Part shown: piece by piece, positions 5,829-22,220 of the stretch | Numbering within the stretch: the stretch's first letter is position 1 | How the letters are laid out: every line of letters starts with the position of its first letter | DNA from: an uncultured Verrucomicrobiae bacterium | GTDB taxonomy: Bacteria; Verrucomicrobiota; Verrucomicrobiia; Chthoniobacterales; UBA10450 | Assembly: GCA_963726745.1 (NCBI GenBank) | Contig: CAVSDR010000006.1 | Location: 864,001-928,000, forward strand | DNA length: 64,000 nucleotides | Direction: 5' to 3' | Made by a program: the position numbers and the translations under genes | Notes under the pieces: generated by a model | Seen by the model: the letters and a program-made list of their open reading frames with translations, nothing else | What the model was told of the DNA's origin: nothing | The model's database searches: none

Positions 5829-8800
5829 TTAGTGGAAGTCGTGCGACTCGCTCCCGCGGAAGCTGGCCTGCGCCAGCGGCTCGATCGTGCGCGCCTTGAT
5901 CAGGATGACGTTGTCGTTGTTCTGCACCTCGCCGGTGATCCGCAGGAACGGCTCCTCCGTGATTAGCAGCCGCAGCTTCTCGAAGAGGTCGGGCGTCACG
6001 ATCGCATTCGAGACGCCGGTCTCGTCTTCCAGGCTGATGAAGACAAAACCTTTCGCCGTCCCGGGCCGCTGGCGGCAAATAACGTTGCCGGCGATCTCCA
6101 CCGTCGCTCCATGCCGGGCCTGGATCAGATCGCTGGCGCGCCAGGCGTTCGGCAGGTCTGCCCGGAGCAATTTCATCGGGTGCGGACCAGTCGTTAGGCT
6201 CATGGTTTCGTAATCCGCCTGCACCCGTTCCGGCATGGTCATGGGCAGGAGCGGCGATTCTTCCTTCTTTGCGCGGCCGCGCCGGCGCTGGGCGAAGAGC
6301 GGCGCCGGCGGTTGCTCCTCCACTTCCCAGAGCGCGTTCCGGCGATGGTCGCTAAAGCAGTTGAGCGCGCCGACGAGCGCGAGCGTGCGCAAGGTCTCCT
6401 GCGGCAGCGGAAGTCGCTGTCTAAAATCCTCCAGCGACTCAAAGGCCGCGGTTTCCCGTTGCCGCACGAGGGCGACCACGTGCTCCTCTCGCAGGCCGCG
6501 GACCACGCAAAAGCCCAGGCGAATCGTCTCGTGGTCGATCACCTGGCAGCCCCAGCCAGAATCGCGCACGGAAACAGGCAGCACTTTCAACCCGTGCCGG
6601 ACGGCGTCTTTCACGATCGTGGCCGGCGAGTAAAAACCCATCGGCTGGTTGTTGATCAGGCTGGCGTAAAACTCCGCCGCGCGATGCACCTTCAAGTAGG
6701 CGCTGCCGTAGGCGAGGATGGCGAAGCTGATCGCGTGCGACTCCGGGAAGCCGTAAAGCGCAAAGGAGGTGATCGATTGCAGGATGCGCTCGATCGCTTC
6801 CGGCGCGACCTGGTTCCGCTCCATCGCGCGCCGCAGCTTGACGCTGACTTTGTTCATCCGCTCCTGCGAACGGTGGAAGCTGAGCGCGCGCCGCAGCTCC
6901 TCTGCTTCCTCGCCGGAGAAGTTCGCCATGATCATCGCGATCTTAAGCAACTGCTCCTGGAAGAGCGGCACGCCGAGGGTGCGGCCGAGGATCGGCTTGA
7001 GGCGGTCGTCAAAATAAGTCACCGGCTCCTTGCCCGCGCGCCGCGCGAGATACGGATGGACCATGTCGCCCTGGATCGGGCCCGGTCGAATAATCGCGAC
7101 CTCGATCACGACATCGTAGAAACACTTCGGCTTCATCCGCGGGAGCGTGGCCATCTGCGCGCGGCTCTCGATCTGGAAAACGCCGATCGTGTCCGCCTGC
7201 TGCATGATCGCGAACGTCTGCGCGTCATCCTTCGGGATGTGCGCCAGGTCGAGCGGCCGCCCGCGTTCCCGGCAAAGCTCGAAGGCATCCTGCATCACCG
7301 CCATCATCCCCAGGCCTAACAAGTCCACCTTCACGATCCCGAGGTCCTCGCAGTCGTCCTTGTCCCACTGCGCGACCACGCGCCCGGGCATGGAGGCATT
7401 CTCCAGCGGGACGAACGAACTCAGCTTTCCCTGGCAGATGATCATCCCGCCGGAGTGCTGCCCGAGATGGCGCGGCAGGCCGTAGATCGATTCGTAGAGC
7501 CGGACGAACGCCGGCATCCGCGGATGCGCCTTCGGCAAACCGGCCTGCTCGATCTGCGCGGTCAGGTCGAGGGTGTGCGGGAAGTCGCCATTCGCGAAAA
7601 GGTGCGAGAAACGCTCGAGGATGCCGGGCGAAAAATTGAGCGCTTTCCCGATCTCGCGCGCTGCGCTCCGGCCGCGGTAGCTGATCACGTTCGCGGTCAT
7701 GGCCGCGCCGTGTTTCCCATAGCGCCGGTAAACTTCCTGGATCACGCGCTCGCGCCGGTCGCCACTCGGCAGATCGAGATCGATGTCCGGCCAGCCTTTG
7801 CGGCTCTCGTTCAGGAAACGCTCGAAGACGAGGTGATTCGAGACCGGATCGACCGGGGTAATCCCGAGGCAATAGCAGACCGCGCTGTTGGCCGCGCTCC
7901 CGCGCCCCTGGACCATGATCCCCTGCTCGCGACAGAAATTGACGATGTCCCAGACGATCAGGAAATAGCCGGAGAACCCGAGCTTCGCGATCAGCGCGAG
8001 CTCTTCGTTGATCTTCTCCTTCACCGCGCGGCTCATCGCCTCGTAACGCTGCTGCGCGCCGAAAAGCGTGATCGTGCGCAGGAAGGAATCCATGTCGTGC
8101 CCCGCCGGCACGGGGAACTGCGGGAACTCGTAGCCGATGTTCTCGAGCGAGAATTGCAGCCGGTCGGCTAAACGCTCGGTGTTCGTGATCGCCTCCGGCA
8201 AATCGCGAAAGAGCGCACGCATTTCCCGGTCGCTCTTCAGATGGCGCTCGGCATTTTGCGTGAGCAAGGTGCCGGCCGCGTCGAGGTGCGTATGCGCGCG
8301 CATGCAGGTGAAAACATCCAGCGCCTCGCGTCCGCGCGCGGTGGCGTATTGCACGCCATTGGTGGCGAGGAGCGGGAGGCGGAACTGCCCCGCGAGATCG
8401 CGGAGCGCGCGGTTTCTCCGCTCTTCGCCGCGCACGAAATGCCGCTGCAGCTCCACGTAGACATTCTCCTGGCCTAACGAGTCGATGAGCCGCTGGGCGT
8501 AGCCTGCCGAGCGCTTGGGGAGCGCAGGCTGCCAGCCTGCTGGCCGCGGCAGCTTGCCGCGACCGCGGAGTGGTAGCCCCCACCGAGAGCGCTGGTTTAT
8601 CTTCCCGTGTTTCCGGCAGGCTGCCGGAAACGGCAGGCTGGCAGCCTGCGCTCCCCGGATTCCCCAGCAAGGCCACCAATCCGTCGGCAAATTCCCGGAG
8701 CTCGCTCCAGCGCACCGCGCACTCGCCTTTCACCTCGCTCCGAAGATGCGCCTCGGTCAGGAGTGAACAGAGATTCCCGTAGCCGGCCTTGGATTTCACC

Positions 8801-9033
8801 AGCACCGGAAGCACGCTCCCGTCTTCCATGCTCAGCTCCGCGCCGACGATCGCGCGCGTCCCCTGCTCGCGCGCTGCGACCGCTGCGCGCTGCGAACCGT
8901 AAACGCCGTTGCGATCGAGCACGGCCAGCGCCGGCATCTCCAGCTGGGCAGCGGTCTCCGCGAGTTGCTCGGGAAAGGAAGCGCCGCGCAGGAAGCTGAA
9001 GGCGCTGCAGGCGTGGAGTTCGACGTAAGCCAT
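5829..9033 (-). CDS. dnaE2: Error-prone DNA polymerase DnaE2 (ImuC); contains palindromic insertion and one frameshift near 8500-8660
   Basis: YVELHACSAFSFLRGAS PHP start in one frame; GRGSAANS, PDIDLD, PRHLGQHSGG, GFPESHA, RQRPGTAKG and C-terminal SHDFH in another. Confidence 0.93.
8517..8656. repeat. REP/REPIN-like 140-bp palindromic element inside dnaE2
   Basis: Perfect 24-bp terminal inverted repeats GGGGAGCGCAGGCTGCCAGCCTGC (8517-8540, 8633-8656), each self-complementary; inner hairpins at 8546-8560 and 8610-8630. Confidence 0.85.
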
Positions 9034-9049: not shown

Positions 9050-9970
9050 TTAGTCGTAGATCCCGTCGACTTGCCACTGCCCGGCTTCCTCGTGCACCCG
9101 TGCGAGCGCCCCGCTGGCCAGTTGCACATCCCACTCCGCGCGCGCCCAGGCAGCCGTGTCCCACCATTGACCGGAAGCGTGATATGGCCCCTTCCGCTCG
9201 ACCACTTCGCGCAATGCCGGCGCCGCGCCGTGACGAAAACGCCGGAGCACTGGGCCGCTCCCATCTTGCTGGCTAATTTCCCGCGCCTCCGGCAACTCCC
9301 AGCGAAACGCCTCCATCCGGAAAACATCCGGCCGATGCGTATCCTCCAGCACCGGCGTGCCGACGCGTTCCGCGCCGAGCAATCCGGCGAGCCGCGCGAG
9401 CGTCTCCGAAAGCTGCGCTGGGTCGCGCAGCGCGCTTTCGAAAAGGCTGAACTGCTGCCGCACCGGCCGCGTGGGCTGCGCTTCCAGCGCGACCGCGACG
9501 ATCGCCGACTCCGAGGTGAAACCCTCGAGGTGCGCCTGGAGCATGCGGAAGAGCGACTCCTCATCGTTGCTCGGCTGCGGGATTTTAAACAGCCGCTCGT
9601 AGCTCGTCCGATCGTCAAAAAGGAGCCGCAGTTTCAACTCCGCGACCACGAGATATTGCGCGCCCAGCCGCAGCGCGAATTGCTGCAGGAAACGCCGGAG
9701 CATGAAGAGCAGCGGCTCGCTCGTGGAGACCTCGTGCTCGAACTCGAAGCTCTCCGCGAAGACTTCCGGCGGCTCCACCAGGCGGAGCAAACGCGTCGCC
9801 TGGCCGCGGGCCCGTTCCCACATCCGCACCGCCTCCGCGCCCAGGCGTGCGCTCACCTCGGCCCGCGGCAGCCGGGCAAAATCGCCTAACGAATGGAGGC
9901 CCCACTGGTGCAGGAGCGCGATCACCCGGCGAATTTCCGCCGCCCGTTCCGCCTCCTGCTTCGCCGTCAT
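9050..9970 (-). CDS. imuB: ImuB / Y-family polymerase-like protein, C-terminal half (thumb, little finger, tail)
   Basis: LHQWGLHSLGDFARLPRAEVSARLG; HRPD; GPYHASGQWW; WQVDGIYD; immediately upstream of dnaE2. Confidence 0.85.
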   Translation of the reverse strand: MTAKQEAERAAEIRRVIALLHQWGLHSLGDFARLPRAEVSARLGAEAVRMWERARGQATRLLRLVEPPEVFAESFEFEHEVSTSEPLLFMLRRFLQQFALRLGAQYLVVAELKLRLLFDDRTSYERLFKIPQPSNDEESLFRMLQAHLEGFTSESAIVAVALEAQPTRPVRQQFSLFESALRDPAQLSETLARLAGLLGAERVGTPVLEDTHRPDVFRMEAFRWELPEAREISQQDGSGPVLRRFRHGAAPALREVVERKGPYHASGQWWDTAAWARAEWDVQLASGALARVHEEAGQWQVDGIYD

Positions 9971-11928
9971 TGCTTGCGCGCGGCCAGCAGGCGCGCCTTC
10001 GCTTCCGCGGAAAGCGAGGAGCTGTTGATCCAGGCCGCGGCCCGGTTGGCATCCGTGCGCATCCAGGCCGCGGCCAGCGATTCGATCTGGTTGTTGCGCG
10101 TCCCTTCATTACCGATCGTCTCGGCCCATTGCGTGGCGGTCGCGGGATCGGTCGAGACCACGCGCTGCGTGTAGGCCAGGACCGCAGCGTCGCGCGAGGC
10201 GCCGCCGGGCAGGGTCGCCAACCAGGCGCCGGCAGCGTAGGGATCGCTCTGGGCCCAGCGGCTCATCAAGCTTTCAAAGGCTTTGGTGCGCGCCTTCCCC
10301 TCGGCAAAAGTCGCCGCCCAGCGGCTGGCCGCCTGCGGATCGTCGCCGGCCCACTGCCAGGCGATGGTGCCGCTGGCCGCGGTCTGCGCCTCGGCGCTCA
10401 TTTGTGGGATCAATTTCGCGGCTTCGCGCGGATCGGTTTCGGCCACGGAAGCGATCAAGCTCGGAAGCACGGCTTCGCGCGCGGCGGGATCAGTGAGCGT
10501 GGTGGCCCAGCGCAGCGCGGCCTGCGAATCGCTCCGGGCCCACTGGCGGGCGACGTTTTCGAGCAGGCCGTTGCGGCCCTCGGTTTTGCTCGTGCGGAGC
10601 GCAAAATCCGCCGCCGCCTGCGGGTCGGCATCGCTCCATTGGCTGATGATATTAGACAGCGCATTCTGTCGCGCAGTGCCTGCGGGAAGTTTCTGCGCCC
10701 AGGCGACGGCGCTTTGGATATCGCTGTTGGCCAGTTGCCCGGCGACCGCGGCGGTGGCTTCGTCCTGCGTCTTGCCCGCAGGCAGGCTGGCGACATAATC
10801 CGCCGCCGCGGCCGGCTCCGCCTGCACCCAACTGGTGAGGGCAAAACGGAGCGCATTGCGCTGGCCATCGCCCGCAGGAAGCTGCTCGGCCCAGGCGAGC
10901 GCCGCGCGCGCATCGGTCAAGGCCCATTGACGCGCGATGTTGCCCACGGAGGCGTCGCGCACGCTGCCGCCTGGGAGCTCGTTGACCAGCGCGGCCGCGC
11001 GCTGCGGATCCTTGTTCGCCCAGCTCGAGAGAATATTTTGCAGCGCATTGTTCCGGCCTTGGCCTGGCGGAAGCGTGTTCGCCCAGGCGAAAGCGGCCTC
11101 GGCATCCTGGTTGGCCCAATTCGAACCGACCACCTGGATGGCAGCGTCACGGCTGGAACCGGCCGGCAATTGCGTGGCCCGTTCGGCCGCCACCACCGGA
11201 TCAAGCGAGGTCCACTTGCTGAAGATGGGCCAGTAAAGATTCTGCCGGGTGCGCCCGGCCGGGAGCGTCTGGAGGAAATTGAGCGCGCTTTGCGGATCCT
11301 TATCCGCCAGCGCGGAGACGATGGTTTGCATCGCCTGATCGCGCGCCGGGCCCGGCGGAAGTTGCTGCGCCCAAGTGGTCGCGGCCGCGGGATCGTGCTC
11401 CGACCAACCGGAGACGGCGCTTGTGATCGCCCAATTGCGCGAGGTCCCGGGCGTGAGCCCTTGCGCGTAAGCCACCGCAGCTGCGGGATCGAATTCCGCC
11501 CAGCGACCGATGACGAGCGAAACGAGCATGTTTTTATCCTGCGGTTTCTGGAGGCTTTCCACGAAGCCGAGCACTTCGCGCAAATTCTGCGGGCTGATGC
11601 TGTCGGCTAATTTGCTGAAGGTCGCGAAAGTGCGGCGGCTATTTGGCCGGCCAAGCGCGGTCTTCATGCGCGCGACGATGCTGGCCGCGGAAGGGGCGTC
11701 GCCGCTGGTTTCGGCTTCGGCCGCATCCGGGGTCTCCGGCGCGACTGTCGGCTGCGGCGGGGCCACGGGGTGCGGGGTGGAAGTTTTGCCAGCAGCCACG
11801 CTCGCCGTCTTCGGCCCGGCTGCGACCGAGGGCGAAGGCGCCGCGGTGTAACGGCCAAGGATCAAGCCGAGCACAAGCGCCGGAAGCGCAAAGAGACTCG
11901 GGAGAAGGAAACGCTTCACGTCATTCAT
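9967..11928 (-). CDS. Membrane-anchored or exported alpha-helical repeat protein (16 x 32-aa repeats)
   Basis: N-terminal hydrophobic segment; Pro/Ala linker; repeats W-x3-DP-x-AA-x2-W-x3-LP-x-G-x2-R; stop overlaps imuB_C start (ATGA). Confidence 0.8.
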   Translation of the reverse strand: MNDVKRFLLPSLFALPALVLGLILGRYTAAPSPSVAAGPKTASVAAGKTSTPHPVAPPQPTVAPETPDAAEAETSGDAPSAASIVARMKTALGRPNSRRTFATFSKLADSISPQNLREVLGFVESLQKPQDKNMLVSLVIGRWAEFDPAAAVAYAQGLTPGTSRNWAITSAVSGWSEHDPAAATTWAQQLPPGPARDQAMQTIVSALADKDPQSALNFLQTLPAGRTRQNLYWPIFSKWTSLDPVVAAERATQLPAGSSRDAAIQVVGSNWANQDAEAAFAWANTLPPGQGRNNALQNILSSWANKDPQRAAALVNELPGGSVRDASVGNIARQWALTDARAALAWAEQLPAGDGQRNALRFALTSWVQAEPAAAADYVASLPAGKTQDEATAAVAGQLANSDIQSAVAWAQKLPAGTARQNALSNIISQWSDADPQAAADFALRTSKTEGRNGLLENVARQWARSDSQAALRWATTLTDPAAREAVLPSLIASVAETDPREAAKLIPQMSAEAQTAASGTIAWQWAGDDPQAASRWAATFAEGKARTKAFESLMSRWAQSDPYAAGAWLATLPGGASRDAAVLAYTQRVVSTDPATATQWAETIGNEGTRNNQIESLAAAWMRTDANRAAAWINSSSLSAEAKARLLAARKQ

Positions 11929-11947
11929 ATAGGCAGGGGGTTGGATA

Positions 11948-11961
11948 TGTTCAAGTGATCG
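11948..11961 (-). promoter_or_regulatory. LexA (SOS) box variant upstream of repeat protein-imuB_C-dnaE2
   Basis: TGTTC-AAGT-GATCG; 14 bp (TCACTTGAACATAT on - strand) identical to the imuA box. Confidence 0.65.
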
Positions 11962-12030
11962 TATGCAAGTCCGACGATCAAAGGACGAAAGTAAGACACC
12001 CTTCCCAAGCCATCGGTTCAGCCGAGGCGC

Positions 12031-14013
12031 CTAGATCACCTTCACTGGACAAGCCGGGAGCGCTTTCAAGAACGCCCGGCCATACGGCTTGGTCACGATC
12101 CGGTTGTCTAAAATAACCACGATGCCCTTGTCGCTCCGCGTGCGAATGAGGCGTCCGACACCTTGCCGCAATTTTAGGATCGCCTCCGGGAGCGAGTATT
12201 CGCTAAAGGCGTCGCCGCCGCGTTCCTGGATCAACTCCAGCTTCGCTTCGATGAGCGGATGATCCGGAACCGCGAAGGGCAGGCGCGTGATGATCACATT
12301 CGAGAGCGCCTCGCCGGGCACATCCACGCCCATCCAAAAACTGTCCGTGCCGAAGAGCACGCTGCGCTCGGTGGTCTTGAAAAGCTCGAGCAATTTCCCC
12401 CGCGGCGCGCCCTGGCCCTGCACGAAAAGATTCATCTTCCGGCTGGCAAAGAAGGGCTGCATCTCGTCGGCTAATTGCTGCATCCCGCGGTAGCTGGTGA
12501 AGAGGACGAAGGCGCGGCCATCGGTTTCCTCGACGAAGCGGCCGACCCATTCCGCGAGCGCGCCGGTGTAAGCGGCGTCGCGCGGATCGGGCATCTTCTG
12601 CACGAGGAAGAGCTTCATCTGCTCCTCGAAATCGAACGGGCTTCCAAGCTGGAGCGCGGTCGCCTCCATCGCGCCCACGCGCCGGCGGAAATAGGCGAGA
12701 TCTTTCTGTCCCACGGCGAGGGTCGCGCTGGTCATGATCGTGCAACACCCATCGCGGAAAAGCATCCGCTGCAGGACTGGCGCGATGTCAATCGGCGCGG
12801 CATTCAGCGAGATGAACTGCGCCGCTTTCCCGGTGCGTTCGACCCAGTAGACGTGGCCGTATTCGCTCTGCTCGAGGAAGGCGGTGATGTCGAGGCGCGC
12901 GCCGCTCACGCGCCGGCCGAGTTCCTGGAGCTCGGCCTTGAGGAACTCGTCCTCGGTTCGCTTGACCACGTCCATGATCCGGACCTGGAGCGCGGCCAGG
13001 CGCGGGCTGATCGTATCCGGGACAAACTCTGGCGCGCGCACGCGCACTTCGCGGCCTTTCCGGAACTCCGCGCGCGTCCCCACGGCCTCGAAGAATTTCT
13101 CCAAGTCGTCGGCTAATTCCGCAGCCAGGGTCACGCCGGCGGCATCGCGCGTGACCGTGAAAAGGCCTTTGCGCGTGCGCGCATTGTAGAGCCGCTGCAC
13201 GGTCGAACGCAGGCCGTATTGCGACACCGAAAGCCCGATCTGGCGCGAGGCAATCTGCTCGACGGTGTGCGCTTCGTCGAAGATCAGGAAATCATTCGGG
13301 AAAAGGTAACCGCTCTCGCGCTCCTCCTGTTCCTCGAGGCTGCCGAGGAGCATGAAGAGGAGCGTGTGATTGACCACGATCACATCCGCGGTCTGGAGGC
13401 GTTTGCGCGCTTGCTGGAAGAAACAGTTCGAGTTGAGGCCGCAAGTTTTGGCGGTGCAGATGTGCGCCTCGCTGCAAACCTGCGCCCAGACTTTCGGGTC
13501 GGGCTCGATCGCGAGATCGCTCAGTGACCCATCGCTGGTGCGCGCGGCCCATTCCGCCAGGCGGACCAATTCCGTTTGCTCGCTCGTGGTGAAAAGCTCG
13601 CCGGCCTGCTGCAGCGCTCGCTCCAGCCGGCGCGGGCAAAGGTAATTTTGCCGGCCCTTCATCAGCGCGGCTTCAAACTCAATCGGCAGGATCTTCTTCA
13701 GGATTGGGATGTCCTTGTAGAGGAGCTGCTCCTGAAGATTGATCGTGTGCGTGGAGATGACGGCTTTCATCGTCTGCTCCTTCGCGTGCAGGATTGCCGG
13801 GACGAGGTAGGCCATCGATTTGCCGACACCGGTGCCGGCCTCGACCACCAGGTGCCGTTCTTCCTCGAGGGCGTGGGCGACGGCCACCGCCATGTCCTGT
13901 TGCTCGGCGCGATATTCGAAATTCTTCGCTTTCGCCAGGAGGCCATCGTGCGCAAAAATACCGCGCACGCGCTCAACGAAGTCGCTCCCGAGATGCTCCC
14001 GGAGGGCGATCAT
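12031..14013 (-). CDS. dinG: DinG/YoaA-family ATP-dependent helicase
   Basis: EAGTGVGKS; KGRQNYLC; Fe-S cysteines; DEAH; SATL; LFTSY; LRQGVGRLIR. Confidence 0.92.
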   Translation of the reverse strand: MIALREHLGSDFVERVRGIFAHDGLLAKAKNFEYRAEQQDMAVAVAHALEEERHLVVEAGTGVGKSMAYLVPAILHAKEQTMKAVISTHTINLQEQLLYKDIPILKKILPIEFEAALMKGRQNYLCPRRLERALQQAGELFTTSEQTELVRLAEWAARTSDGSLSDLAIEPDPKVWAQVCSEAHICTAKTCGLNSNCFFQQARKRLQTADVIVVNHTLLFMLLGSLEEQEERESGYLFPNDFLIFDEAHTVEQIASRQIGLSVSQYGLRSTVQRLYNARTRKGLFTVTRDAAGVTLAAELADDLEKFFEAVGTRAEFRKGREVRVRAPEFVPDTISPRLAALQVRIMDVVKRTEDEFLKAELQELGRRVSGARLDITAFLEQSEYGHVYWVERTGKAAQFISLNAAPIDIAPVLQRMLFRDGCCTIMTSATLAVGQKDLAYFRRRVGAMEATALQLGSPFDFEEQMKLFLVQKMPDPRDAAYTGALAEWVGRFVEETDGRAFVLFTSYRGMQQLADEMQPFFASRKMNLFVQGQGAPRGKLLELFKTTERSVLFGTDSFWMGVDVPGEALSNVIITRLPFAVPDHPLIEAKLELIQERGGDAFSEYSLPEAILKLRQGVGRLIRTRSDKGIVVILDNRIVTKPYGRAFLKALPACPVKVI

Positions 14014-14091
14014 GAGATTTGCACTTTGCGGTCGACCATGGAGCCGTGATCTTAAGCCGCTTATCGCCTTCCGACATTCGCAATTTCGCCT

Positions 14092-15237
14092 GTGAGACTG
14101 CTCGATTTTTATGTGCTGCGGAATTTTCTCCGGGCGTACTTTTATTGCATCGCAGCCTTTCTCGCGGTCTGGCTGGTCTTCGACATCAGCGACAAGATTT
14201 CCACCTTCCTGGACGAAAGTGTCTCGGTGATCTCGGTGGCGCACTACTACCTCACGCAGGCTCCGGAAATCATTGTCATTGTCCTGCCGATTGCGCTCCT
14301 GCTGGCGCTCCTTTTTTCCCTTAGCCGAATGTCGCGCTCGAATGAGATCGTCTCGATGCTCACCGCCGGGATCAGCATCCCGCGCTTGCTGGTGCCGCTG
14401 TTCGCGGCCGGCCTGGCCACGACTGCGCTCAGTGCCGCGCTAAATTTTGCCCTCTCGCCGCACGCCGAGCAGGCGCGCAAGGCCTACTTCGAGGAGATGC
14501 GCGACGAGTCGCGCGGCGCGATGGCGATGGGCCAGATTTTTCGCAATCGCTCGGGCAATCGCACCTGGTTTATCCAGCGCTTTAACGCGACCACCAACGA
14601 GTTTGTCACCCTGCAAGTCCTGCAGCAGGACGCCAACGACAACATCGTCACAAATTACCTCGCGACCTCGGCGACCTATGAACCGGCCGCCCGCGCCTGG
14701 CAGCTGCGCGGCGTGAAAGTGGTGCACTACGACGCGGAGGGAAACATCGCCGGCGAAGAGAATCGCGCCCAACTGCTGGTGCACGACTGGGACGAAACCC
14801 CTTTCCGGCTCGCCAGCTCGAACATGCGCGCAGAATACCTGAGCGTGCCCGAGCTGCGCGATTACCTGCGCTACAATGCCGACTTCCCGCGCACCCTGCT
14901 CGCGCCCTTCGCCACCCACCTGCACTATCGGCTGGCACTTCCGCTGACCTGTTTGATTGTGGTCCTGATCGCGTCGCCGCTCGCGATCGGCTTCTCACGC
15001 AAGGGCGTCCTCTCGAGCGTGGCTGCGGCCATCGGGCTGATTTTCTTCATGAACTTCCTCACGCATTTCTTTCTCGCGCTGGGCGAAGGCGCGCGTATCG
15101 CCCCGTGGGCCGCCGCTTGGACGCCGAACCTCCTGTTTGCGATCGTTGGCGTGATTTTGCTTTATCTACGCTCGAGTAATCGCGAAGCGCGGGAGCTCTT
15201 CTCCGTGCGCGCATCTCCGCATCCGGCACGCGCATGA
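14092..15237 (+). CDS. LptF/LptG family LPS export permease
   Basis: LLDFYVLR; SRSNEIVSMLTAGIS; 3+3 TM layout; AAWTPNLLF. Confidence 0.88.
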   Translation: MRLLDFYVLRNFLRAYFYCIAAFLAVWLVFDISDKISTFLDESVSVISVAHYYLTQAPEIIVIVLPIALLLALLFSLSRMSRSNEIVSMLTAGISIPRLLVPLFAAGLATTALSAALNFALSPHAEQARKAYFEEMRDESRGAMAMGQIFRNRSGNRTWFIQRFNATTNEFVTLQVLQQDANDNIVTNYLATSATYEPAARAWQLRGVKVVHYDAEGNIAGEENRAQLLVHDWDETPFRLASSNMRAEYLSVPELRDYLRYNADFPRTLLAPFATHLHYRLALPLTCLIVVLIASPLAIGFSRKGVLSSVAAAIGLIFFMNFLTHFFLALGEGARIAPWAAAWTPNLLFAIVGVILLYLRSSNREARELFSVRASPHPARA

Positions 15238-15734
15238 ATCCGCTGGCAAACGACTGGCCGATCAAACACCGCGCAGAAGTTTGCGCAGCCACCGGCCGCC
15301 CGTTCGAGCCGGGCGAACTATTTTACACGCTCCTTTTCCGCGAAGGTGCGGGCTATCGCCGCGAAGACTTGAGCGAGGAAGGCTGGGCCGCGCGCAACGA
15401 AAACATCCGCCCGTTTTCGTTTTGGAAAACCCGCTACGAGCCGCCACCCGCGGTCCCGCCGGAACCGCTGGCCAAAGAGAACGCCGAGGAGCTGCTCCGT
15501 CGCCTCCTGGGCGAGAGCGCGCAGCCGAATGCCTGCTACGTGCTCGCGGCCATGCTCGAGCGGAAACGCATCCTGAAGCCGATCAAGACCGAGCCGGCGG
15601 ACAACGGCCGCCGGGTGCTCATTTACGAACACGCCAAAACCGGCGAAGTCTTCCTGGTCCCGGATGTGGAGCTTAAGCTCGACGAGCTCGAAGCGGTCCA
15701 GAGCGAGGTCGCGCAACTCATGCAGGCGGTCTAA
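15234..15734 (+). CDS. Hypothetical protein
   Basis: Overlaps lptF/G stop (ATGA); coding-like composition; YVLAAMLERKRILK. Confidence 0.7.
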   Translation: MNPLANDWPIKHRAEVCAATGRPFEPGELFYTLLFREGAGYRREDLSEEGWAARNENIRPFSFWKTRYEPPPAVPPEPLAKENAEELLRRLLGESAQPNACYVLAAMLERKRILKPIKTEPADNGRRVLIYEHAKTGEVFLVPDVELKLDELEAVQSEVAQLMQAV

Positions 15735-15743
15735 CGAATCGAA

Positions 15744-16745
15744 ATGCACTCCTTGCTGCCATGGTTCGCCGGCGGGCACTTCCCGCTTTACCTCGCCCCC
15801 ATGGCCGGGATCTCGGATAAAATTTTCCGCCAGCTTTGCAAGGAATACGGCGCCGACGTTCTTGTGACCGAGTTTGTTTCTTCGGAAGGCGTCTTCCGGC
15901 GGAACGAGCGCACGCGCGAGTATCTCGACTTCGACGAGGTCGAGCGTCCGCTCGGCGTCCAGCTTTTCGGCGCCAATCCCGAGCACATGGCCGAAGCCGC
16001 GCGGCAGGTGATCGACTGGGTGCGGCCCGATTTCATCGACCTGAACTTTGGCTGCCCGGTTAACAAAGTGGTGTCTAAAAATGGCGGGAGCGCGCTGCTC
16101 AAGGATTGCCCCACGCTTGCCGCCGTGGCCAGCGCCGTCGTGCGCGCGGCGGCGCCCATGCCTGTGACCGCGAAGATCCGCATCGGCTGGGACGCGCAAT
16201 CGGTCAACGCCGCAGGCGTCGCGCGCATCCTGGAGGATCTCGGGATTGCCGCGATCGCGGTCCACGGCCGCACGCGCGCGCAGGGTTACTCCGGCGAGGC
16301 GGATTGGAAAGTCATCGGCGAAGTCGCCGAAGCCGTGCGCGTGCCGGTGATCGGCAACGGCGACATCACCTGCGCCGAGGATGTCCTGCGTCGACGCGCA
16401 GAGACGAAAGTAGCCGGCGTGATGATCGGCCGCGCGGCCATGTGTGCGCCGTGGATTTTCCAGCAGATCAAACGCGAATTCGCCGCTGGCGGTCCGCTGC
16501 CCGCGCCCGAGCTGACCGAGCGCTGGGAGGTGATCGCGCGCCATTGCCGTTTGGTGGTCGAGGATTGGCAAAACGAAGACGCCGCCATGCGCTCGATGCG
16601 CGCGCGCTTGATGGCTTATTCAAAGGGCTTTCCCGCGAGCAAAGCGCTGCGCGAGAAATTCCAGCACATCACTCGTCTCGCCGAGCTCGACGCGATCGCA
16701 CAGGAGCACATCGCGACGCACGCTGCGGTGGCCGTCTTGCCCTAG
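15744..16745 (+). CDS. dusB: tRNA-dihydrouridine synthase B
   Basis: LAPMAG; DLNFGCP; GGSALL; KIRIGW; VHGRTR; GNGDI; MIGRAA. Confidence 0.92.
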   Translation: MHSLLPWFAGGHFPLYLAPMAGISDKIFRQLCKEYGADVLVTEFVSSEGVFRRNERTREYLDFDEVERPLGVQLFGANPEHMAEAARQVIDWVRPDFIDLNFGCPVNKVVSKNGGSALLKDCPTLAAVASAVVRAAAPMPVTAKIRIGWDAQSVNAAGVARILEDLGIAAIAVHGRTRAQGYSGEADWKVIGEVAEAVRVPVIGNGDITCAEDVLRRRAETKVAGVMIGRAAMCAPWIFQQIKREFAAGGPLPAPELTERWEVIARHCRLVVEDWQNEDAAMRSMRARLMAYSKGFPASKALREKFQHITRLAELDAIAQEHIATHAAVAVLP

Positions 16746-16770
16746 GGGCGTGCGCCCGTTACCTTCCCCC

Positions 16771-17151
16771 GTGTCTGCGACTGCGACCCCGCCCACCGGC
16801 CTTAACTACAAGATCGGCAACGAACGCCTGATCAAGGTGACGGAAAACGCTGCCCGGAAACTCCTCGGCCTCCTGCAGAAACAAGGCCGCCCGCAGGGCG
16901 CCCTGCGCGTTGCCGTCATCGGCGGCGGCTGCTCCGGATTGCAATACAAGATGGACCTGGTCGATGGCCCGCTGAATCGCGACATCATGGTCCAATCCGC
17001 CGAGGTGCGCGTGGTGGTCGATCCGAAGAGCGCGCTTTTTGTCAGCGGCTCGCTGCTCGACTTTAGCGACGACCTGCAGAAGGGCGGCTTCAAAGTCACG
17101 AATCCGAACGCGGTCGCGCATTGCTCCTGCGGCGAAAGCTTCGCGGCATGA
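16771..17151 (+). CDS. iscA: A-type Fe-S cluster carrier (IscA/HesB family)
   Basis: GGGCSGLQY; GFKVTNPNA; CSCGESF; start chosen from TTGCCC-N17-TACCTT-N5-GTG. Confidence 0.9.
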   Translation: MSATATPPTGLNYKIGNERLIKVTENAARKLLGLLQKQGRPQGALRVAVIGGGCSGLQYKMDLVDGPLNRDIMVQSAEVRVVVDPKSALFVSGSLLDFSDDLQKGGFKVTNPNAVAHCSCGESFAA

Positions 17152-17700
17152 CCGATTACTTCGCGCTGCTCTCGCAGCCGCGCGGCCCGTGGCTCGATCC
17201 GGAGGAATTGAAGGAAGGCTTTCCATGCGCGTAGCCGGCAACTTCATCCCGACGTGAGTGGGAAGGCGGGCGAATTCGCGGAGGTGAACGAAGCCTACCA
17301 GGTGCTGCGCGAACCAAAGCGCCGCTTGCAGCATTTGCTTGCGCTCGAAGATGCCGAGCCGCCGCGCGCTGCCGCGGTCCCGAGGGAAATTGCCGACCTC
17401 TTCCCGCGCGTGGCCACGCTGATGCACGCCGCCGCAGCCGCGCTCGAGCAGCGCGCCCGCGCGGGCAACGCGCTTAACATCTCGCTGGCTAAAACGGCGG
17501 CGCTGCAGACCGGCGGCGAGATTGCCGCGCAACTCGAACAACTCCGCGCGCAGCAAGCCGCCGCGTTGGAGGAGTTGCGCCAGCGAAGCCATGGCTGGGA
17601 GGCACAGCTCCCGGCGTTGCAGCAGCTCTACCTTGCGCTCTCCTACCTCACACGCTGGATCGCGGAGCTGGAGGAAAAAGCGCTCCAACTCGCGAATTAG
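17148..17700 (+). CDS. hscB: HscB-like J-domain co-chaperone; one frameshift near 17218
   Basis: MTDYFALL...then HPDV, VNEAYQVLREP after removing one G; coupled to iscA (ATGA). Confidence 0.8.
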
Positions 17701-17706
17701 CCAGCA

Positions 17707-17747
17707 CGTTCATTTGAACTTGCAGCACTCGTTATTCTCCGCATAAT
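17707..17747 (+). promoter_or_regulatory. lexA promoter with degenerate LexA box
   Basis: CGTTC-ATTT-GAACT (17707-17720) abutting TTGCAG-N16-CATAAT; GTG start 6 nt after the -10. Confidence 0.65.
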
Positions 17748-17753
17748 TCCGCC

Positions 17754-18392
17754 GTGCTCACCGAACGCCAGCAAGACGTGCTCGGCTTCATCCAGTCCGA
17801 ACAACGCGAACGCGGTTTCACCCCCAGCACGCGCGAAATCCAGAAGCATTTCGGCTTCGCCAGCCAGACGTCGGTCATGCAATACCTCGACGTCCTGCAG
17901 CGGAAAGGCTTTCTCGATCGCCACGCGCGCAAGGCCCGCGCCTTGATCACGCCGGTCTCGAAGGTGCGCATCACGGACATCCCGATCTACGGCCAGATTC
18001 CCGCGGGCATGGCCACGGCCACGGAGGAGGCGATCGAGGGACACATCTCGCTCGATGCGCGCACGGCCAATACTTCGAAAAACAGCCGCACGTTCGCGCT
18101 CCGCGTGCGCGGCGATTCCATGATCGAGGCGCATATTTTAGACGGCGACTTGGTCATCCTCGAGGACCGGAAGGAAGTGCAGAATGGCGACATCGTGGCG
18201 GCCTTGATCGATGGGGAGACGACCTTGAAGCGCTACGTGGTCGATCACGGCCGCCCGTATTTGAAGGCGGAGAATCCGCTCTACCCGGACCTCGTGCCGG
18301 CGCGGGAGTTGCGCATCCAGGGCGTGATGGTCTCGCTGGTGCGCCAGCAGGCCGCGCCGCAGCGGGCCGCGCGGCGCAAAAGCGCTGGCTAA
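17754..18392 (+). CDS. lexA: SOS repressor LexA
   Basis: LTERQ; PSTREI HTH; Ala-Gly cleavage site IPAG; GDSM catalytic Ser; TTLKR catalytic Lys. Confidence 0.96.
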   Translation: MLTERQQDVLGFIQSEQRERGFTPSTREIQKHFGFASQTSVMQYLDVLQRKGFLDRHARKARALITPVSKVRITDIPIYGQIPAGMATATEEAIEGHISLDARTANTSKNSRTFALRVRGDSMIEAHILDGDLVILEDRKEVQNGDIVAALIDGETTLKRYVVDHGRPYLKAENPLYPDLVPARELRIQGVMVSLVRQQAAPQRAARRKSAG

Positions 18393-18485
18393 TTTTCGCG
18401 GGCCGGCCGTTGGACTGCTGGCGTGCATCCGTGGCGGTTCGCCGCGCTTAATCGAAACGCTTTTATACTCTCCAGCCAGGCGATG

Positions 18486-18499
18486 TGTTCACTTGAACA
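18486..18499 (+). promoter_or_regulatory. LexA (SOS) box upstream of imuA
   Basis: Perfect TGTTC-ACTT-GAACA, the motif described for Verrucomicrobia LexA. Confidence 0.88.
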
Positions 18500-18526
18500 T
18501 ATTCGCTCGCAATGCCACGCTGGTTC

Positions 18527-19168
18527 ATGCCGGCGAGCAGCAGCAAAATCATCGACCTGCGGAAGCTGCTCGCGGAGCGCTATCCGCAGACGCAGATCGC
18601 GCCGGCCGCGCGTTTGCTCACTGGCATTCCTCCGCTCGATGAAGCCGGCGGCTTGCCGAAGGGCGCGATTACGGAATTAACCAGCCCGCACGAGAGCGCC
18701 GGGAGCGCGCGTCTCCTGCACACCCTGCTTCGCCGCGCGCAGCGGGAACGCGAGTTCGTGGCCTTGATCGACGGGCGCGATTCCTTCGATCCGCAGCCGC
18801 TGGGAAATGAGTGTCTGCGCCACCTTCTCTGGGTCCGCTGCACCACTGCGCTCGCGGCCGTGAAAGCCGCCGACCTGCTCCTGCGCGACGGCAATTTCCC
18901 GCTCGTGATCCTCGACCTGGTGCTGAACAGCGCCGAGGAGCTGCGCAAGATTCCGCAGACCAGCTGGTATCGGCTGCAACGCCTGGCCGAGCCGCTCTCG
19001 CTCGCTTTTCTCGTGCTCACGCGCCGGAGCGTGATCAGCAGCGCGCAGGTGAAGTTGACCCTCGAGCATCGCTGGCAATTGGCGGACATCGATGAGCCAC
19101 GCGATTTCGCCCGCACAAAAATCGAGGTGCAACGCCTGCACCCGCATCGGCTGGAGGCTGTCGGCTAA
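18527..19168 (+). CDS. imuA: ImuA / RecA-like mutasome accessory protein
   Basis: TGIPPLD..GGLPKGAITEL; degenerate Walker A; ALIDGRDSFDP; LLWVRC; ADLLLRDGNFPLVILD. Confidence 0.85.
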   Translation: MPASSSKIIDLRKLLAERYPQTQIAPAARLLTGIPPLDEAGGLPKGAITELTSPHESAGSARLLHTLLRRAQREREFVALIDGRDSFDPQPLGNECLRHLLWVRCTTALAAVKAADLLLRDGNFPLVILDLVLNSAEELRKIPQTSWYRLQRLAEPLSLAFLVLTRRSVISSAQVKLTLEHRWQLADIDEPRDFARTKIEVQRLHPHRLEAVG

Positions 19169-19169
19169 A

Positions 19170-19694
19170 ATGCTTTTCGCCACCCTTTATCTCCCGAACT
19201 TTTTCCTCCAGGCCGCGCTCCGCCATCAGCCGGAGCTGGCTGGCCACGCCGTCGCCTTGATCGATGAGCGCGACGCGAAACCCACTTTCTTGCAGGTCAA
19301 CGCGGAGGCGGCCGCGGCCGAGGTGCGCTGCGGGATGACGCCCAGCCAGGGGCTCGCGCGCTACCTGCCGCTGGTGGTAAAAGGGCGCCTGCTCGAGCAG
19401 GAGAAAATGCTGGCTGATTTGCTCCTGCAGTTCGCCTTTACCCTCTCGCCTTTTGTGGAAGCGACTGCGCCCGGCATCTGCACGGTGCAGGCAAACGAGG
19501 GCGCGGCGCTGCGGGAGAAAGTCGAGCGCGTGCTCGCGCAATTGCAGGCCGCCGGGCTAACCGCGCAGGCCGGGATCGCGCCGACGCCCGACACCAGCTT
19601 TCTCGCGGCCCACCTCGCGAATCCACTCTTGCAGGTCGAGGACGTGACCGAATTCCTCGCGCCGCTTCCGATCGAGACCCTGGCCCAGGGCTGA
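19170..19694 (+). CDS. imuB: ImuB / Y-family polymerase-like protein, N-terminal half (palm and fingers), 174 aa
   Basis: FATLYLPNF; VNAEA...GMTPSQGLA; LSPFVE; AGIAPT; ends FLAPLPIETL; 1 nt after imuA stop. Confidence 0.85.
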   Translation: MLFATLYLPNFFLQAALRHQPELAGHAVALIDERDAKPTFLQVNAEAAAAEVRCGMTPSQGLARYLPLVVKGRLLEQEKMLADLLLQFAFTLSPFVEATAPGICTVQANEGAALREKVERVLAQLQAAGLTAQAGIAPTPDTSFLAAHLANPLLQVEDVTEFLAPLPIETLAQG

Positions 19695-19696
19695 AC

Positions 19697-22220
19697 TTAG
19701 CCAGCGAGATTCGGATATTTCGCGCGCAACTGCTGCGTGGCGCGAGCCGCTTCAGCCTGGTTGCCGGCTTTTTGATACGCGGCCGCGGCTCGCTGCAAGG
19801 CCCTCGGCGTGATCGCCGGGTCGTCGTAAAGCAAGGACACGCTCATGAAAGTTTTCGCCGCCTCCTCGAAAGCCCCGCGTTCAAACTGCACTTCGCCCGC
19901 GAGGAGGCGAGCTTCCGCGTTCACTTTCCCCTCCGGCTGCAGGCTCATGATTTCCTCGGCAATCCGCTGCGCTTCCTCCGGTTTGTGCGCTGCGATCTTG
20001 GCCGCGCCGAGCGCGATCAAGGTCTTGGCGCGCGCCGCCGGATCGCTCGTCGTTTGCAGGTAGCGTTCGTAAGAGCCTTCGGCATCGCTCACCTTGCCGG
20101 TCTTCATCTGCGCATCGGCCAGGTAGAACCAGAAATCCGCGTTCACATTCGAGCCTTCGTTCGCGCCCAGGGCGCTGAGGTATTTCTCGGCCGCGGCGTA
20201 GTTCTTCTCGTTGTAATAATCCAGCCCGAGCCACTGCAGGATTTCGCCAGGAATCGGCGCTTCGCGGCCGCTGGCGAGGTATTTGTCGACTTCGCTCGTG
20301 AGCGCGGCGCGGTTTTTTTGGTAAAAATAAGCAGAGATGATCCGGACCGTCGCGGGGGTGTAATACTGCTCCGCGTTCAATTTCCGCGCAGCCTCGAGCG
20401 CGGCGATCGCCGGCTTGTAGTCCTTCGCCTCGAAGGCCGCCTTCCCGATGTAATACTGCGCCTGTGCCGCGGCCTCGGTCTTCGGATATTCCTTCAGCAG
20501 CTGCGCAAAAGCGGCCGACATCGCCTTGTCGTTTTCCTGCTGGCCGAGGAGGAGCGCCTTTTGTTGCAGCGCGCCTTCGCGCTCGCGCGCTTTTGGGTAG
20601 CTCTTGATCAAGGTATCGAGGTCGGCGATCGCGGCGTCGAAGTTCTTCGTCTCCTGGTAGGCCAGCGCGCGCTGGGTGAGCGCGCTCGGAGCCTGCGGGT
20701 TGTCGGCAAAAGCCTTCAGGAAATAGCTAAAGGCATCGATAATCCGCAGCGGATTCTTGAGCTGCACGTAACACCAGCCAGCTTTGTAAGCCGACTCTGC
20801 GCGCAGCTTGGCCGAAAGCTGGGAAGCGCGCAGCGTCTCATAGAGCGGCGCGGCCTCGGCGAAATTTCCCTGGCGATAAAGCGCCTCGGCTTTCAAGAGC
20901 CGCGCCTGGTCGGCCCGTTCGCCGCTCGAGTTGCTGGCTAAATACTCGTCCACCTGCGCGACCACCGCCGCGGGATCGGCGTTGTAGACATTGATCAAGC
21001 GCTGGTAACGCGCGTCCTTCGCTTCTTCGCGCGCAGGGATATTTCTCGATGATCTGGGCGTAGAGTGCCTCCGCTTCCGGGCCGTGGCCGAGCTGGCGCT
21101 GGCTGTTCGCTGCGTAGAGCATCATCTCCGCGCGGGCGTCGTCTGGCAGGTCGTCGCCCGCGCGTTTCCATTCCGTGAGCACCTGCTGGAATTGCCCGCC
21201 GGAATAGAGCACCCGGAGGAGGCCGGTGGCCGCGAGCCCGCGCCATTTCCCGGCCTCGGCTAACGAGCGGCCTTTTTGCAAGAGCGCGACTGCTTTTTCC
21301 GAGAGCGCTTTGTTGCCCTTCTCGCCTTGCGCGAGGTCGGCCGCAATCAAGCCGGCGCGCACGGTCGCCTCGGCTTTCAAAGCGGCCTTGCCGGTTTCGT
21401 TTGCCAGCGCCTCGTATTGCTTCAGCGCCTCCGCTTTGCGCCCGCGATTGAAAAGGATCGAGGCCGCGGCGGAGCGCGAGTCTTCGCGGAAAGGATTCGG
21501 GTCCTTCGCCTCGATCACCTGCAGGTAAGCGGTCGCGGCTTCATCCTTGCGATCGAGATTTTCCAGCGAACGCGCCTCGAAATAGCGCGCCGACAAGGCC
21601 AGGCCGGGCTCCTTCGTCTTCGCTGCCGAGCGATGAAATTGCGCCAGCGCGCCGGCGTAATCTTTCTGGTTAAAAAGAATCTCGCCCACGCCATAGGCCG
21701 CCGGCCCGGCAAACTCACTCTCGGAAAAATCAGCCAGCACACTCTGGAAAGCAGTCCGCGCCGGCGCGGTGCGGTTCTGCGCGCGGTAGGCTTCGGCGAG
21801 GTAAAAGAACGCGCTCGCGCGGCCGGACGCATTCGGGAATTGGCCGAGGAACTTCTCGTATTCCGGAATTGCGAGATCGTAGAGCTTGCGATTGAAGAGC
21901 GCGTTCGCGTAATCGAGCTGGCGCTGGTCGGCCGCCTCCGGTTCCGGCCCTTCGCTCGCCGCGGGCTCGCTCCGCGGCGTAGCCGGCTCCTCGGGCGCGG
22001 GCACCGGAGTGGAGCGCGGAGTGGGCGCGGGCGTAGCCACCGGCAACGGGGTGGCCGCCTTGCGCGGGGTCGACTCCTCCACCGGAAGCGCGCGGCGCAC
22101 GGGCGGCTCGTTCACCGGCTGGGCCCGGCGAATTTCCGGGGCCGCCTGCGCCTGCCCCCAGGCACTCGTTAGGCAAAACGCCCACGCGAGCACGCCCAGG
22201 GCGCTCGTGCGCCAGTTCAT
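19697..22220 (-). CDS. Exported TPR protein; one frameshift near 21035
   Basis: Signal peptide; Pro-rich linker; continuous TPR helices across two frames; coupled to exbD. Confidence 0.8.

Follow-up and report, generated by a model that had tools for sequence, protein, structure and literature searches.

What becomes of a mutasome when its ImuB is encoded in two pieces? The question is raised by a 64,000-nt stretch of DNA (the window) from an uncultured Verrucomicrobiae bacterium of the order Chthoniobacterales (assembly GCA_963726745.1, contig CAVSDR010000006.1, positions 864,001 to 928,000), in which imuB, a single gene in the canonical lexA-imuA-imuB-dnaE2 cassette, is represented by two separate open reading frames (ORFs), here called imuB-N and imuB-C. 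The source genome (G000) consists of seven contigs and is 94.7% complete. The split is real, ancient, and family-wide. A first-pass annotation of the window proposed a two-subunit ImuB, and two halves acting in trans is also the explanation favored here, with a probability of about 0.7.

The imuB-N ORF matches the Pfam IMS domain (PF00817) at residues 7–146 (E 1.7e-7, above the curated cut-off). Its protein ends FLAPLPIETLAQG-stop, the last residues being LPIETLAQG. The first-pass annotation had described palm and fingers only; the ORF and its stop are confirmed, but the first thumb helix, LPIETL, is kept as well. The catalytic acids are gone, with EATAPG where EPLSLDE would be expected. The imuB-C ORF matches IMS_C weakly (E 0.0016, slightly short of the cut-off) and aligns with approximately positions 195–357 of the Pol IV profile. 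The intact ImuB of a sister family (locus L167) was aligned to E. coli Pol IV through LPLAK-IPGVG-KVSAAKL, a hairpin which is taken here to be the thumb helix-hairpin-helix (HhH). The two halves flank it, imuB-N ending before and imuB-C beginning after it, and are thus complementary, as had been supposed, although this alignment places the cut inside the thumb HhH, at the hairpin, rather than before it. The annotation had also raised the possibility of a full-length imuB elsewhere in the genome; none was found in G000 by tblastn, only a distant DinB-like match on contig C2.

The same split is found throughout the Chthoniobacterales family to which the source genome belongs. Matches to imuB-C were obtained in 137 of 150 family genomes, covering 29 of 30 genera (an initial search had matched 19 of 24 genomes of the genus), with a longest open frame of 421 aa; imuB-N was matched in 135 of 140 (78/80 plus 57/60), in frames of up to 377 aa. 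The halves are not joined as one frame in any of the 137. These tallies, and only these, include up to three unpublished genomes (G001, G045, G155), without which they become 134/147 and 133/138. Direct reading of 49 family genomes, G000 among them, places the imuB-N stop 0–25 aa past the aligned end, G059 being frameshifted, and in nearly all of them the imuB-C start codon is approximately 11–50 aa ahead of LHKWG. Elsewhere in the order, 61 of 143 genomes were matched, 57 of these with frames of 460 aa or more; of the remaining four, three are at contig ends, and in the fourth (G266) a single frame holds both parts, with a frameshift further on. The two parts share one frame in all 24 genomes outside the family that were read directly, and in other orders of the class (150 genomes searched) all ten matching genomes have frames of 496–751 aa. 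Each half forms a single clade relative to 24 intact outgroup sequences (support 95/98 and 99; the C-half tree was made with FastTree). On these trees the split form is derived from an intact ImuB, and a fission that arose once is the simplest reading.

Individual genomes depart from this pattern in other ways. In G059 (L192) the frameshifted imuB-N accompanies intact imuB-C and dnaE2, which could reflect sequencing error or a real loss of imuB-N. G016 (L046/L057) and G023 (L044/L058) have imuA-imuB-N twice per genome, which may be contamination (4–5%). Among outgroups with a whole imuB, G220 (L180) has imuA approximately 7 kb from it, and G224 (L171) and G219 (L181) have no dnaE2 within approximately 9 kb.

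Both halves are under purifying selection, as judged from sequence divergence. Calculated by NG86 for pairs with dS under 1 only, which are non-independent (dS is saturated for most pairs), median ratios of nonsynonymous to synonymous substitution rates (dN/dS) are 0.21 for imuB-N (79 of 2926 pairs) and 0.20 for imuB-C (28 of 1770), compared with 0.22 for imuA (55 pairs), 0.11 for lexA, and 0.12 for dnaE2 (50 pairs). Sequences that contained stops or were covered to less than 75% were removed beforehand. This comparison had been suggested in the first-pass annotation, and neither value is that of a neutrally evolving gene. Across the family, median amino-acid identity is 62% for imuB-N and 60% for imuB-C, with synonymous sites near saturation.

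The halves lie in two units, as proposed from the window, each with a LexA-type box. The palindrome TGTTC-N4-GAACA is presumably the LexA box of the Verrucomicrobia. Such a box with at most two mismatches precedes lexA in 46/46 family genomes and imuA in 49/49 (47/49 with at most one); that at 18486 is one of two perfect sites in G000. For the unit containing imuB-C, a box with at most one mismatch is directly before imuB-C in 25 of 49 genomes, and one with at most two is before the upstream gene orf653 in 22 more. The other two are G060, with a two-mismatch site before imuB-C, and G064, where the locus ends early. Six control genes (32–43 genomes each) have no sites at one mismatch or fewer, and 5–15% have them at two or fewer. 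The placements before imuB-C and before orf653 are nearly exclusive, with about six switches on the tree, so the box appears to track imuB-C-dnaE2 rather than orf653. Taken by itself, the window has fewer two-mismatch boxes than expected by chance (10 observed, 15.7 expected), and the case for the site at 11948 therefore rests on conservation in relatives. A scan for sigma-70 promoters gave nothing above chance. Both units are probably SOS co-regulated.

The predicted fold of imuB-N (predicted local distance difference test, pLDDT, 92.5) has Pol IV, Dbh, and Dpo4 among its top Foldseek matches, with TM scores of 0.77–0.86. The imuB-C model (pLDDT 85) opens with a long helix, followed by the thumb, the little finger, and a terminal beta domain; a helix of approximately 15 residues has been gained, with a new hydrophobic residue at position 13. 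In the terminal thumb helix of imuB-N, F162, L163, and L166 are present in 77/77 sequences, and positions 168 and 171 are always occupied by large hydrophobics. This last helix is among the best-kept segments, though it has no core to pack on within its own chain. On imuB-C, the clamp motif residues Q173 and F177 are found in 60/60, and the helix at 184–199 is conserved. Within that helix, residues 185–187 of the RecA-NT-like motif are N-R-F in the outgroups (F in 24/24) and variable-Q-L in the family (L in 60/60); on this alignment the motif changed on the stem of the split-imuB family.

The two halves dock in a predicted complex, which is what stands, as a modelled result, of the two-subunit ImuB first proposed. 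In a three-chain model of ImuA, ImuB-C, and ImuB-N as partner, the interface score (ipSAE) was 0.71, with 0.00 for the best control; runs agreed in at least 98% of contacts, and partner pLDDT was 89 or higher. Of 157 solved pairs, 116 reached the mark used for this score, as did 2 of 215 mismatched ones, counts that apply to this job only approximately. All of the listed ImuB-N contacts in the model are to ImuB-C and none to ImuA, and the score fell to 0.00 when ImuB-C was swapped for an unrelated chain with ImuA kept. Residues 163–172 of ImuB-N are predicted to lie on the thumb (ImuB-C 10–32 and 50–60), and the ImuB-C linker (62–75) to pass over the ImuB-N palm (76–107).

The history and mechanism proposed are then as follows. 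A single fission at the thumb HhH hairpin would have occurred in the ancestor of the family, with selection keeping both genes since. DNA damage would free two units from LexA, lexA/imuA-imuB-N and (orf653)-imuB-C-dnaE2. ImuB-C would be the hub, with its clamp motif contacting the beta clamp, its RecA-NT-like part ImuA, and its thumb and barrel DnaE2, and ImuB-N, with its dead palm and fingers, would join it in trans. The LPIETL helix would fill the thumb core, the linker from thumb to little finger would cross the ImuB-N palm, and the rejoined halves would make a Y-family-shaped scaffold holding the DNA on which DnaE2 carries out error-prone synthesis. The association of the halves here is that of the model, while the partner sites on ImuB-C, the control by LexA, and the role in mutagenesis are taken by analogy from the literature. 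A more elaborate version is doubtful: a four-chain mutasome of ImuA, ImuB-N, ImuB-C, and DnaE2 in which the dead palm and fingers are a separately dosed gating subunit and the two boxes an AND gate. If it held, the C-half would sit on the clamp with DnaE2, synthesis would need ImuB-N and ImuA from the second operon, and the gate would tune the mutation rate in a very common soil bacterial group.

Several points weigh against a two-subunit ImuB. The complex job, with three chains and custom alignments, is unlike the calibration set, and the two parts of a divided gene can succeed in such a test through likeness to solved Y-family structures, so that the model shows fit and not binding. The predicted interface columns are no better conserved than the rest (0.62 vs. 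0.63 and 0.66 vs. 0.66), meaning no relaxation, yet no enrichment. Co-variation between the halves is about that between imuB-N and ImuA (partial r 0.46 vs. 0.45); neither the interface-conservation nor the mirror-tree test discriminates between the readings. In G000 itself, the box heading the C-half unit has two mismatches, and the dnaE2 frame breaks in or beside a 140-bp palindromic insert. Finally, a mutasome survey (PMC12926913) describes reduced ImuBs with thumb, little finger, and ImuB-C only, so that ImuB-N may be dispensable.

This last point leads to an alternative in which imuB-C is a self-sufficient reduced ImuB, its longer first helix replacing the missing thumb helix, and imuB-N has a separate SOS-linked job. 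Natural ImuBs keep those three parts even at their most reduced (PMC12926913), and every known partner site is within the C-half (PMC12926913, PMC11791113). The gained helix with its new hydrophobic position would fit, as would the location of imuB-N in a unit with imuA instead of imuB-C and the few fragmented genomes with imuB-N and no imuB-C. However, the model docks imuB-N on imuB-C and nothing remains of its score with ImuA and an unrelated chain; the new helix touches imuB-N in that model (residues 10, 13, and 14); the imuB-N thumb helix is almost unchanged; and of five N-only genomes tested, four contain pieces of dnaE2, which in at least two of them lie at contig ends, as assembly gaps would produce. 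This alternative, the main rival, is considered unlikely. It is very improbable that the halves are rejoined before use, whether by reversible DNA inversion, RNA splicing, or protein splicing. They are mostly on opposite strands approximately 7–20 kb apart, and a single inversion of the segment between them would geometrically restore the canonical order, but in hand-picked relatives they are 55 kb to 1.3 Mb apart, with four on the same strand. The ends are ragged (tails of 0–25 aa, leaders of approximately 11–50 aa), and an intein-like segment is absent from both ORFs. No repeats were found between the two breakpoints of the window, the longest common word being 9 nt. An invertible switch was rejected given this and the lack of the joined orientation in the 137 family genomes; the first-pass annotation had likewise seen no inverted repeats and preferred an old fixed event.

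Misassembly, or recent pseudogenization of the cassette, is scarcely credible. The G000 assembly does have frameshifts in dnaE2, a tetratricopeptide repeat (TPR) gene (near 21035), and an hscB-like gene (near 17230, by reading of the printed sequence), and none of the public contigs listed, which are short, bridged either breakpoint or the dnaE2 frame break; a search of public sequencing runs listed one weak DNA match (share 0.14) and no RNA match. Nevertheless, identical junctions and neighbors recur in many independent assemblies, dN/dS is approximately 0.2 in both halves, and the boxes are conserved; misassembly as the cause of the split is ruled out by these comparative data. A narrower suggestion, compatible with a two-subunit ImuB, is that the system works in the family and is dead in this strain, the palindromic insert having broken dnaE2. 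The frame break, which the first-pass annotation did not mention, is real, and the same loop is disrupted in one relative (G070), but the other 37 of 39 family loci are intact, with the catalytic aspartates in PDIDLDL, and in frame despite inserts of variable length. Since two unrelated genes within 13 kb, the TPR and hscB-like genes, are also frameshifted, assembly indels are likelier than decay, and the dnaE2 frameshift is probably such an error. Loss of function in this strain is accordingly rather unlikely.

The inserts are a feature of dnaE2 in their own right. The gap in the PHP-domain loop ranges from 3 to 162 nt and in many family members (L092-L125, L128, L130, L185-L203) is filled by palindromic inserts, which belong to several repeat types; most outgroups show a conserved GDEEG-helix segment there instead. 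At least four further long copies of the G000 insert occur elsewhere in that genome.

Features of the window are collected in Table 1. The RecA-NT and barrel labels on imuB-C were assigned by position and motif following PMC12926913 and PMC11791113, with no profile match; in the housekeeping block the helicase comes from profile matches and the remaining names from motif reading.

Table 1. Coordinates of the split imuB locus and its surroundings (positions within the window).
Feature	Position	Strand	Description
imuB-N	19170..19694	+	174 aa; Y-family palm and fingers, first thumb helix (LPIETL); PF00817
imuB-C	9050..9970	-	306 aa; lengthened thumb helix, remainder of thumb and little finger; QQFSLF (clamp motif) at 172-177; RecA-NT-like helix at 184-199; C-terminal barrel
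imuA	18512..19168	+	RecA PF00154; start may be second Met, 18527
lexA	17754..18392	+	TIGR00498 above cut-off
dnaE2	5829..9033	-	Two frames in source assembly; NF004225 above cut-off; PHP domain
Palindromic repeat, 140 bp	8517..8656		Inverted repeat inserted in PHP-domain loop of dnaE2
orf653	9967..11928	-	Helical-repeat protein, hydrophobic N-terminal segment; heads imuB-C-dnaE2 unit here
LexA-type box, 2 mismatches	11948..11961		20 nt before orf653; heads imuB-C-dnaE2 unit
TGTTC-N4-GAACA box, perfect	18486..18499		Precedes imuA-imuB-N
LexA-type box, 2 mismatches	17707..17720		Precedes lexA
Housekeeping block between halves	12031..17700		dinG/yoaA-like helicase (-), then (+) genes lptG-like, orf166, dusB-like, iscA-like, hscB-like; gene order conserved in relatives
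TPR-protein gene	19697..22090	-	Convergent with imuB-N; 5' boundary approximate; frameshift near 21035

The genes within each unit are closely spaced in the window, where the imuB-N ATG is 1 nt past the imuA stop, the imuB-C ATG overlaps the orf653 stop as ATGA, and dnaE2 starts 16 nt downstream of the imuB-C stop. The tight coupling noted in the first-pass annotation is thus confirmed here, but that to orf653 is variable among relatives, with gaps from -13 to approximately 1100 nt. The imuA product matches NCBIfam ImuA (E 4.7e-10) below the equivalog cut-off as well as the RecA family, and comparison of loci in relatives identifies imuA as the ortholog of that in intact cassettes. No family was found for orf653 above cut-off in profile searches. 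It has DNA repeats approximately 190 nt apart, and its members are Verrucomicrobiota hypothetical clusters. It lies behind a LexA-type box in about half of the genomes and elsewhere is outside the box or absent. Many relatives lack it at this position, and it is probably a passenger in the imuB-C-dnaE2 unit.

Most family genomes keep the window's gene order, intervening genes included. Outside the family, the flanking housekeeping genes are missing from all 20 outgroup loci, and the adjacency predicted for a possible single-inversion origin was not found in five outgroup genomes; these have TPR, dinG, and lexA homologs (and iscA-like ones in four), mostly far from imuB, the nearest being dinG approximately 16 kb away in G296. 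Three genomes of genus g18 (L115/G104, L116/G071, L117/G115) have a second inversion, from orf653 to lexA, so that lexA now precedes imuB-C-dnaE2 and orf653 precedes imuA-imuB-N, with the split and both boxes retained. One end is approximately 25 nt or less from the imuA box, as if recombination had taken place between the two palindromic boxes. Both halves, imuA, and dnaE2 are absent from G019, G021, and G085; since dinG and lexA are absent too, the whole block appears to be missing. In G019 (L206; 93% complete), unrelated genes follow gnd and a small zinc-ribbon gene, and the block from dnaE2 to imuB-N was not found.

The mapped partner sites of ImuB are all C-terminal (PMC12926913, PMC11791113). 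To ask what its dead polymerase core does, the split-imuB family offers a natural dissection, with the core as a gene of its own that could be removed or re-added alone. Since imuB-N is under selection as strong as that on ImuA, the core presumably does something. There may also be a practical advantage: M. xanthus ImuB was insoluble (PMC11002988), and the small halves may prove simpler to purify than the undivided protein. For surveys the consequence is different. That of PMC12926913 recognizes 11 module types and, by its methods, discards Y-family fragments under 200 aa; the 174-aa imuB-N would be discarded, and a working mutasome could be mis-scored. Udaeobacter, Chthoniobacter, and Spartobacteria are not in the part of its supplement examined. 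The lineage appears to include Candidatus Udaeobacter, described as abundant in soil globally.

Literature searches, with subscription papers outside their scope, found no published description of an imuB split at the thumb HhH; as far as searched, it is a previously undescribed variant of a known mutasome system. Its closest counterpart is the canonical (lexA-)imuA-imuB-dnaE2 cassette of DnaE2A type (Caulobacter, Pseudomonas, Myxococcus, and the mycobacterial imuA'-imuB/dnaE2), which has the same three components and is exactly what sister families of the split-imuB family carry. A dead Y-family ImuB, clamp motif, RecA-NT-like helix, barrel, DnaE2 with its active site, and LexA-type boxes are all shared. 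In contrast to the canonical form, ImuB here is two genes in two units instead of one polypeptide in the imuA operon. The mycobacterial "split cassette" (PMC10421592) parts whole genes, whereas here the cut is within imuB.

Other comparisons are with systems in PMC12926913. In B. subtilis YqjW-YqjX and UvrX-YolD a Y-family protein is likewise completed by a second gene product, but there an active polymerase is paired with a small UmuD-like subunit, with no fission of the polymerase fold. The reduced ImuBs, "in various stages of decay" (Fig. S22 legend), retain the same minimal set as imuB-C; unlike in these, the palm and fingers persist here as a conserved SOS-linked gene. The DnaE2X-iPolY-ImuB-C-RecA systems, called "split ImuB" and proposed to be ancestral, resemble the present one in that ImuB function is shared by two polypeptides. 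Those systems, however, have a whole inactive PolY and a standalone ImuB-C barrel, with RecA as partner and no ImuA, while in the split-imuB family the gene is cut within the thumb HhH, the barrel stays part of the 306-aa C-half, and the system includes ImuA.

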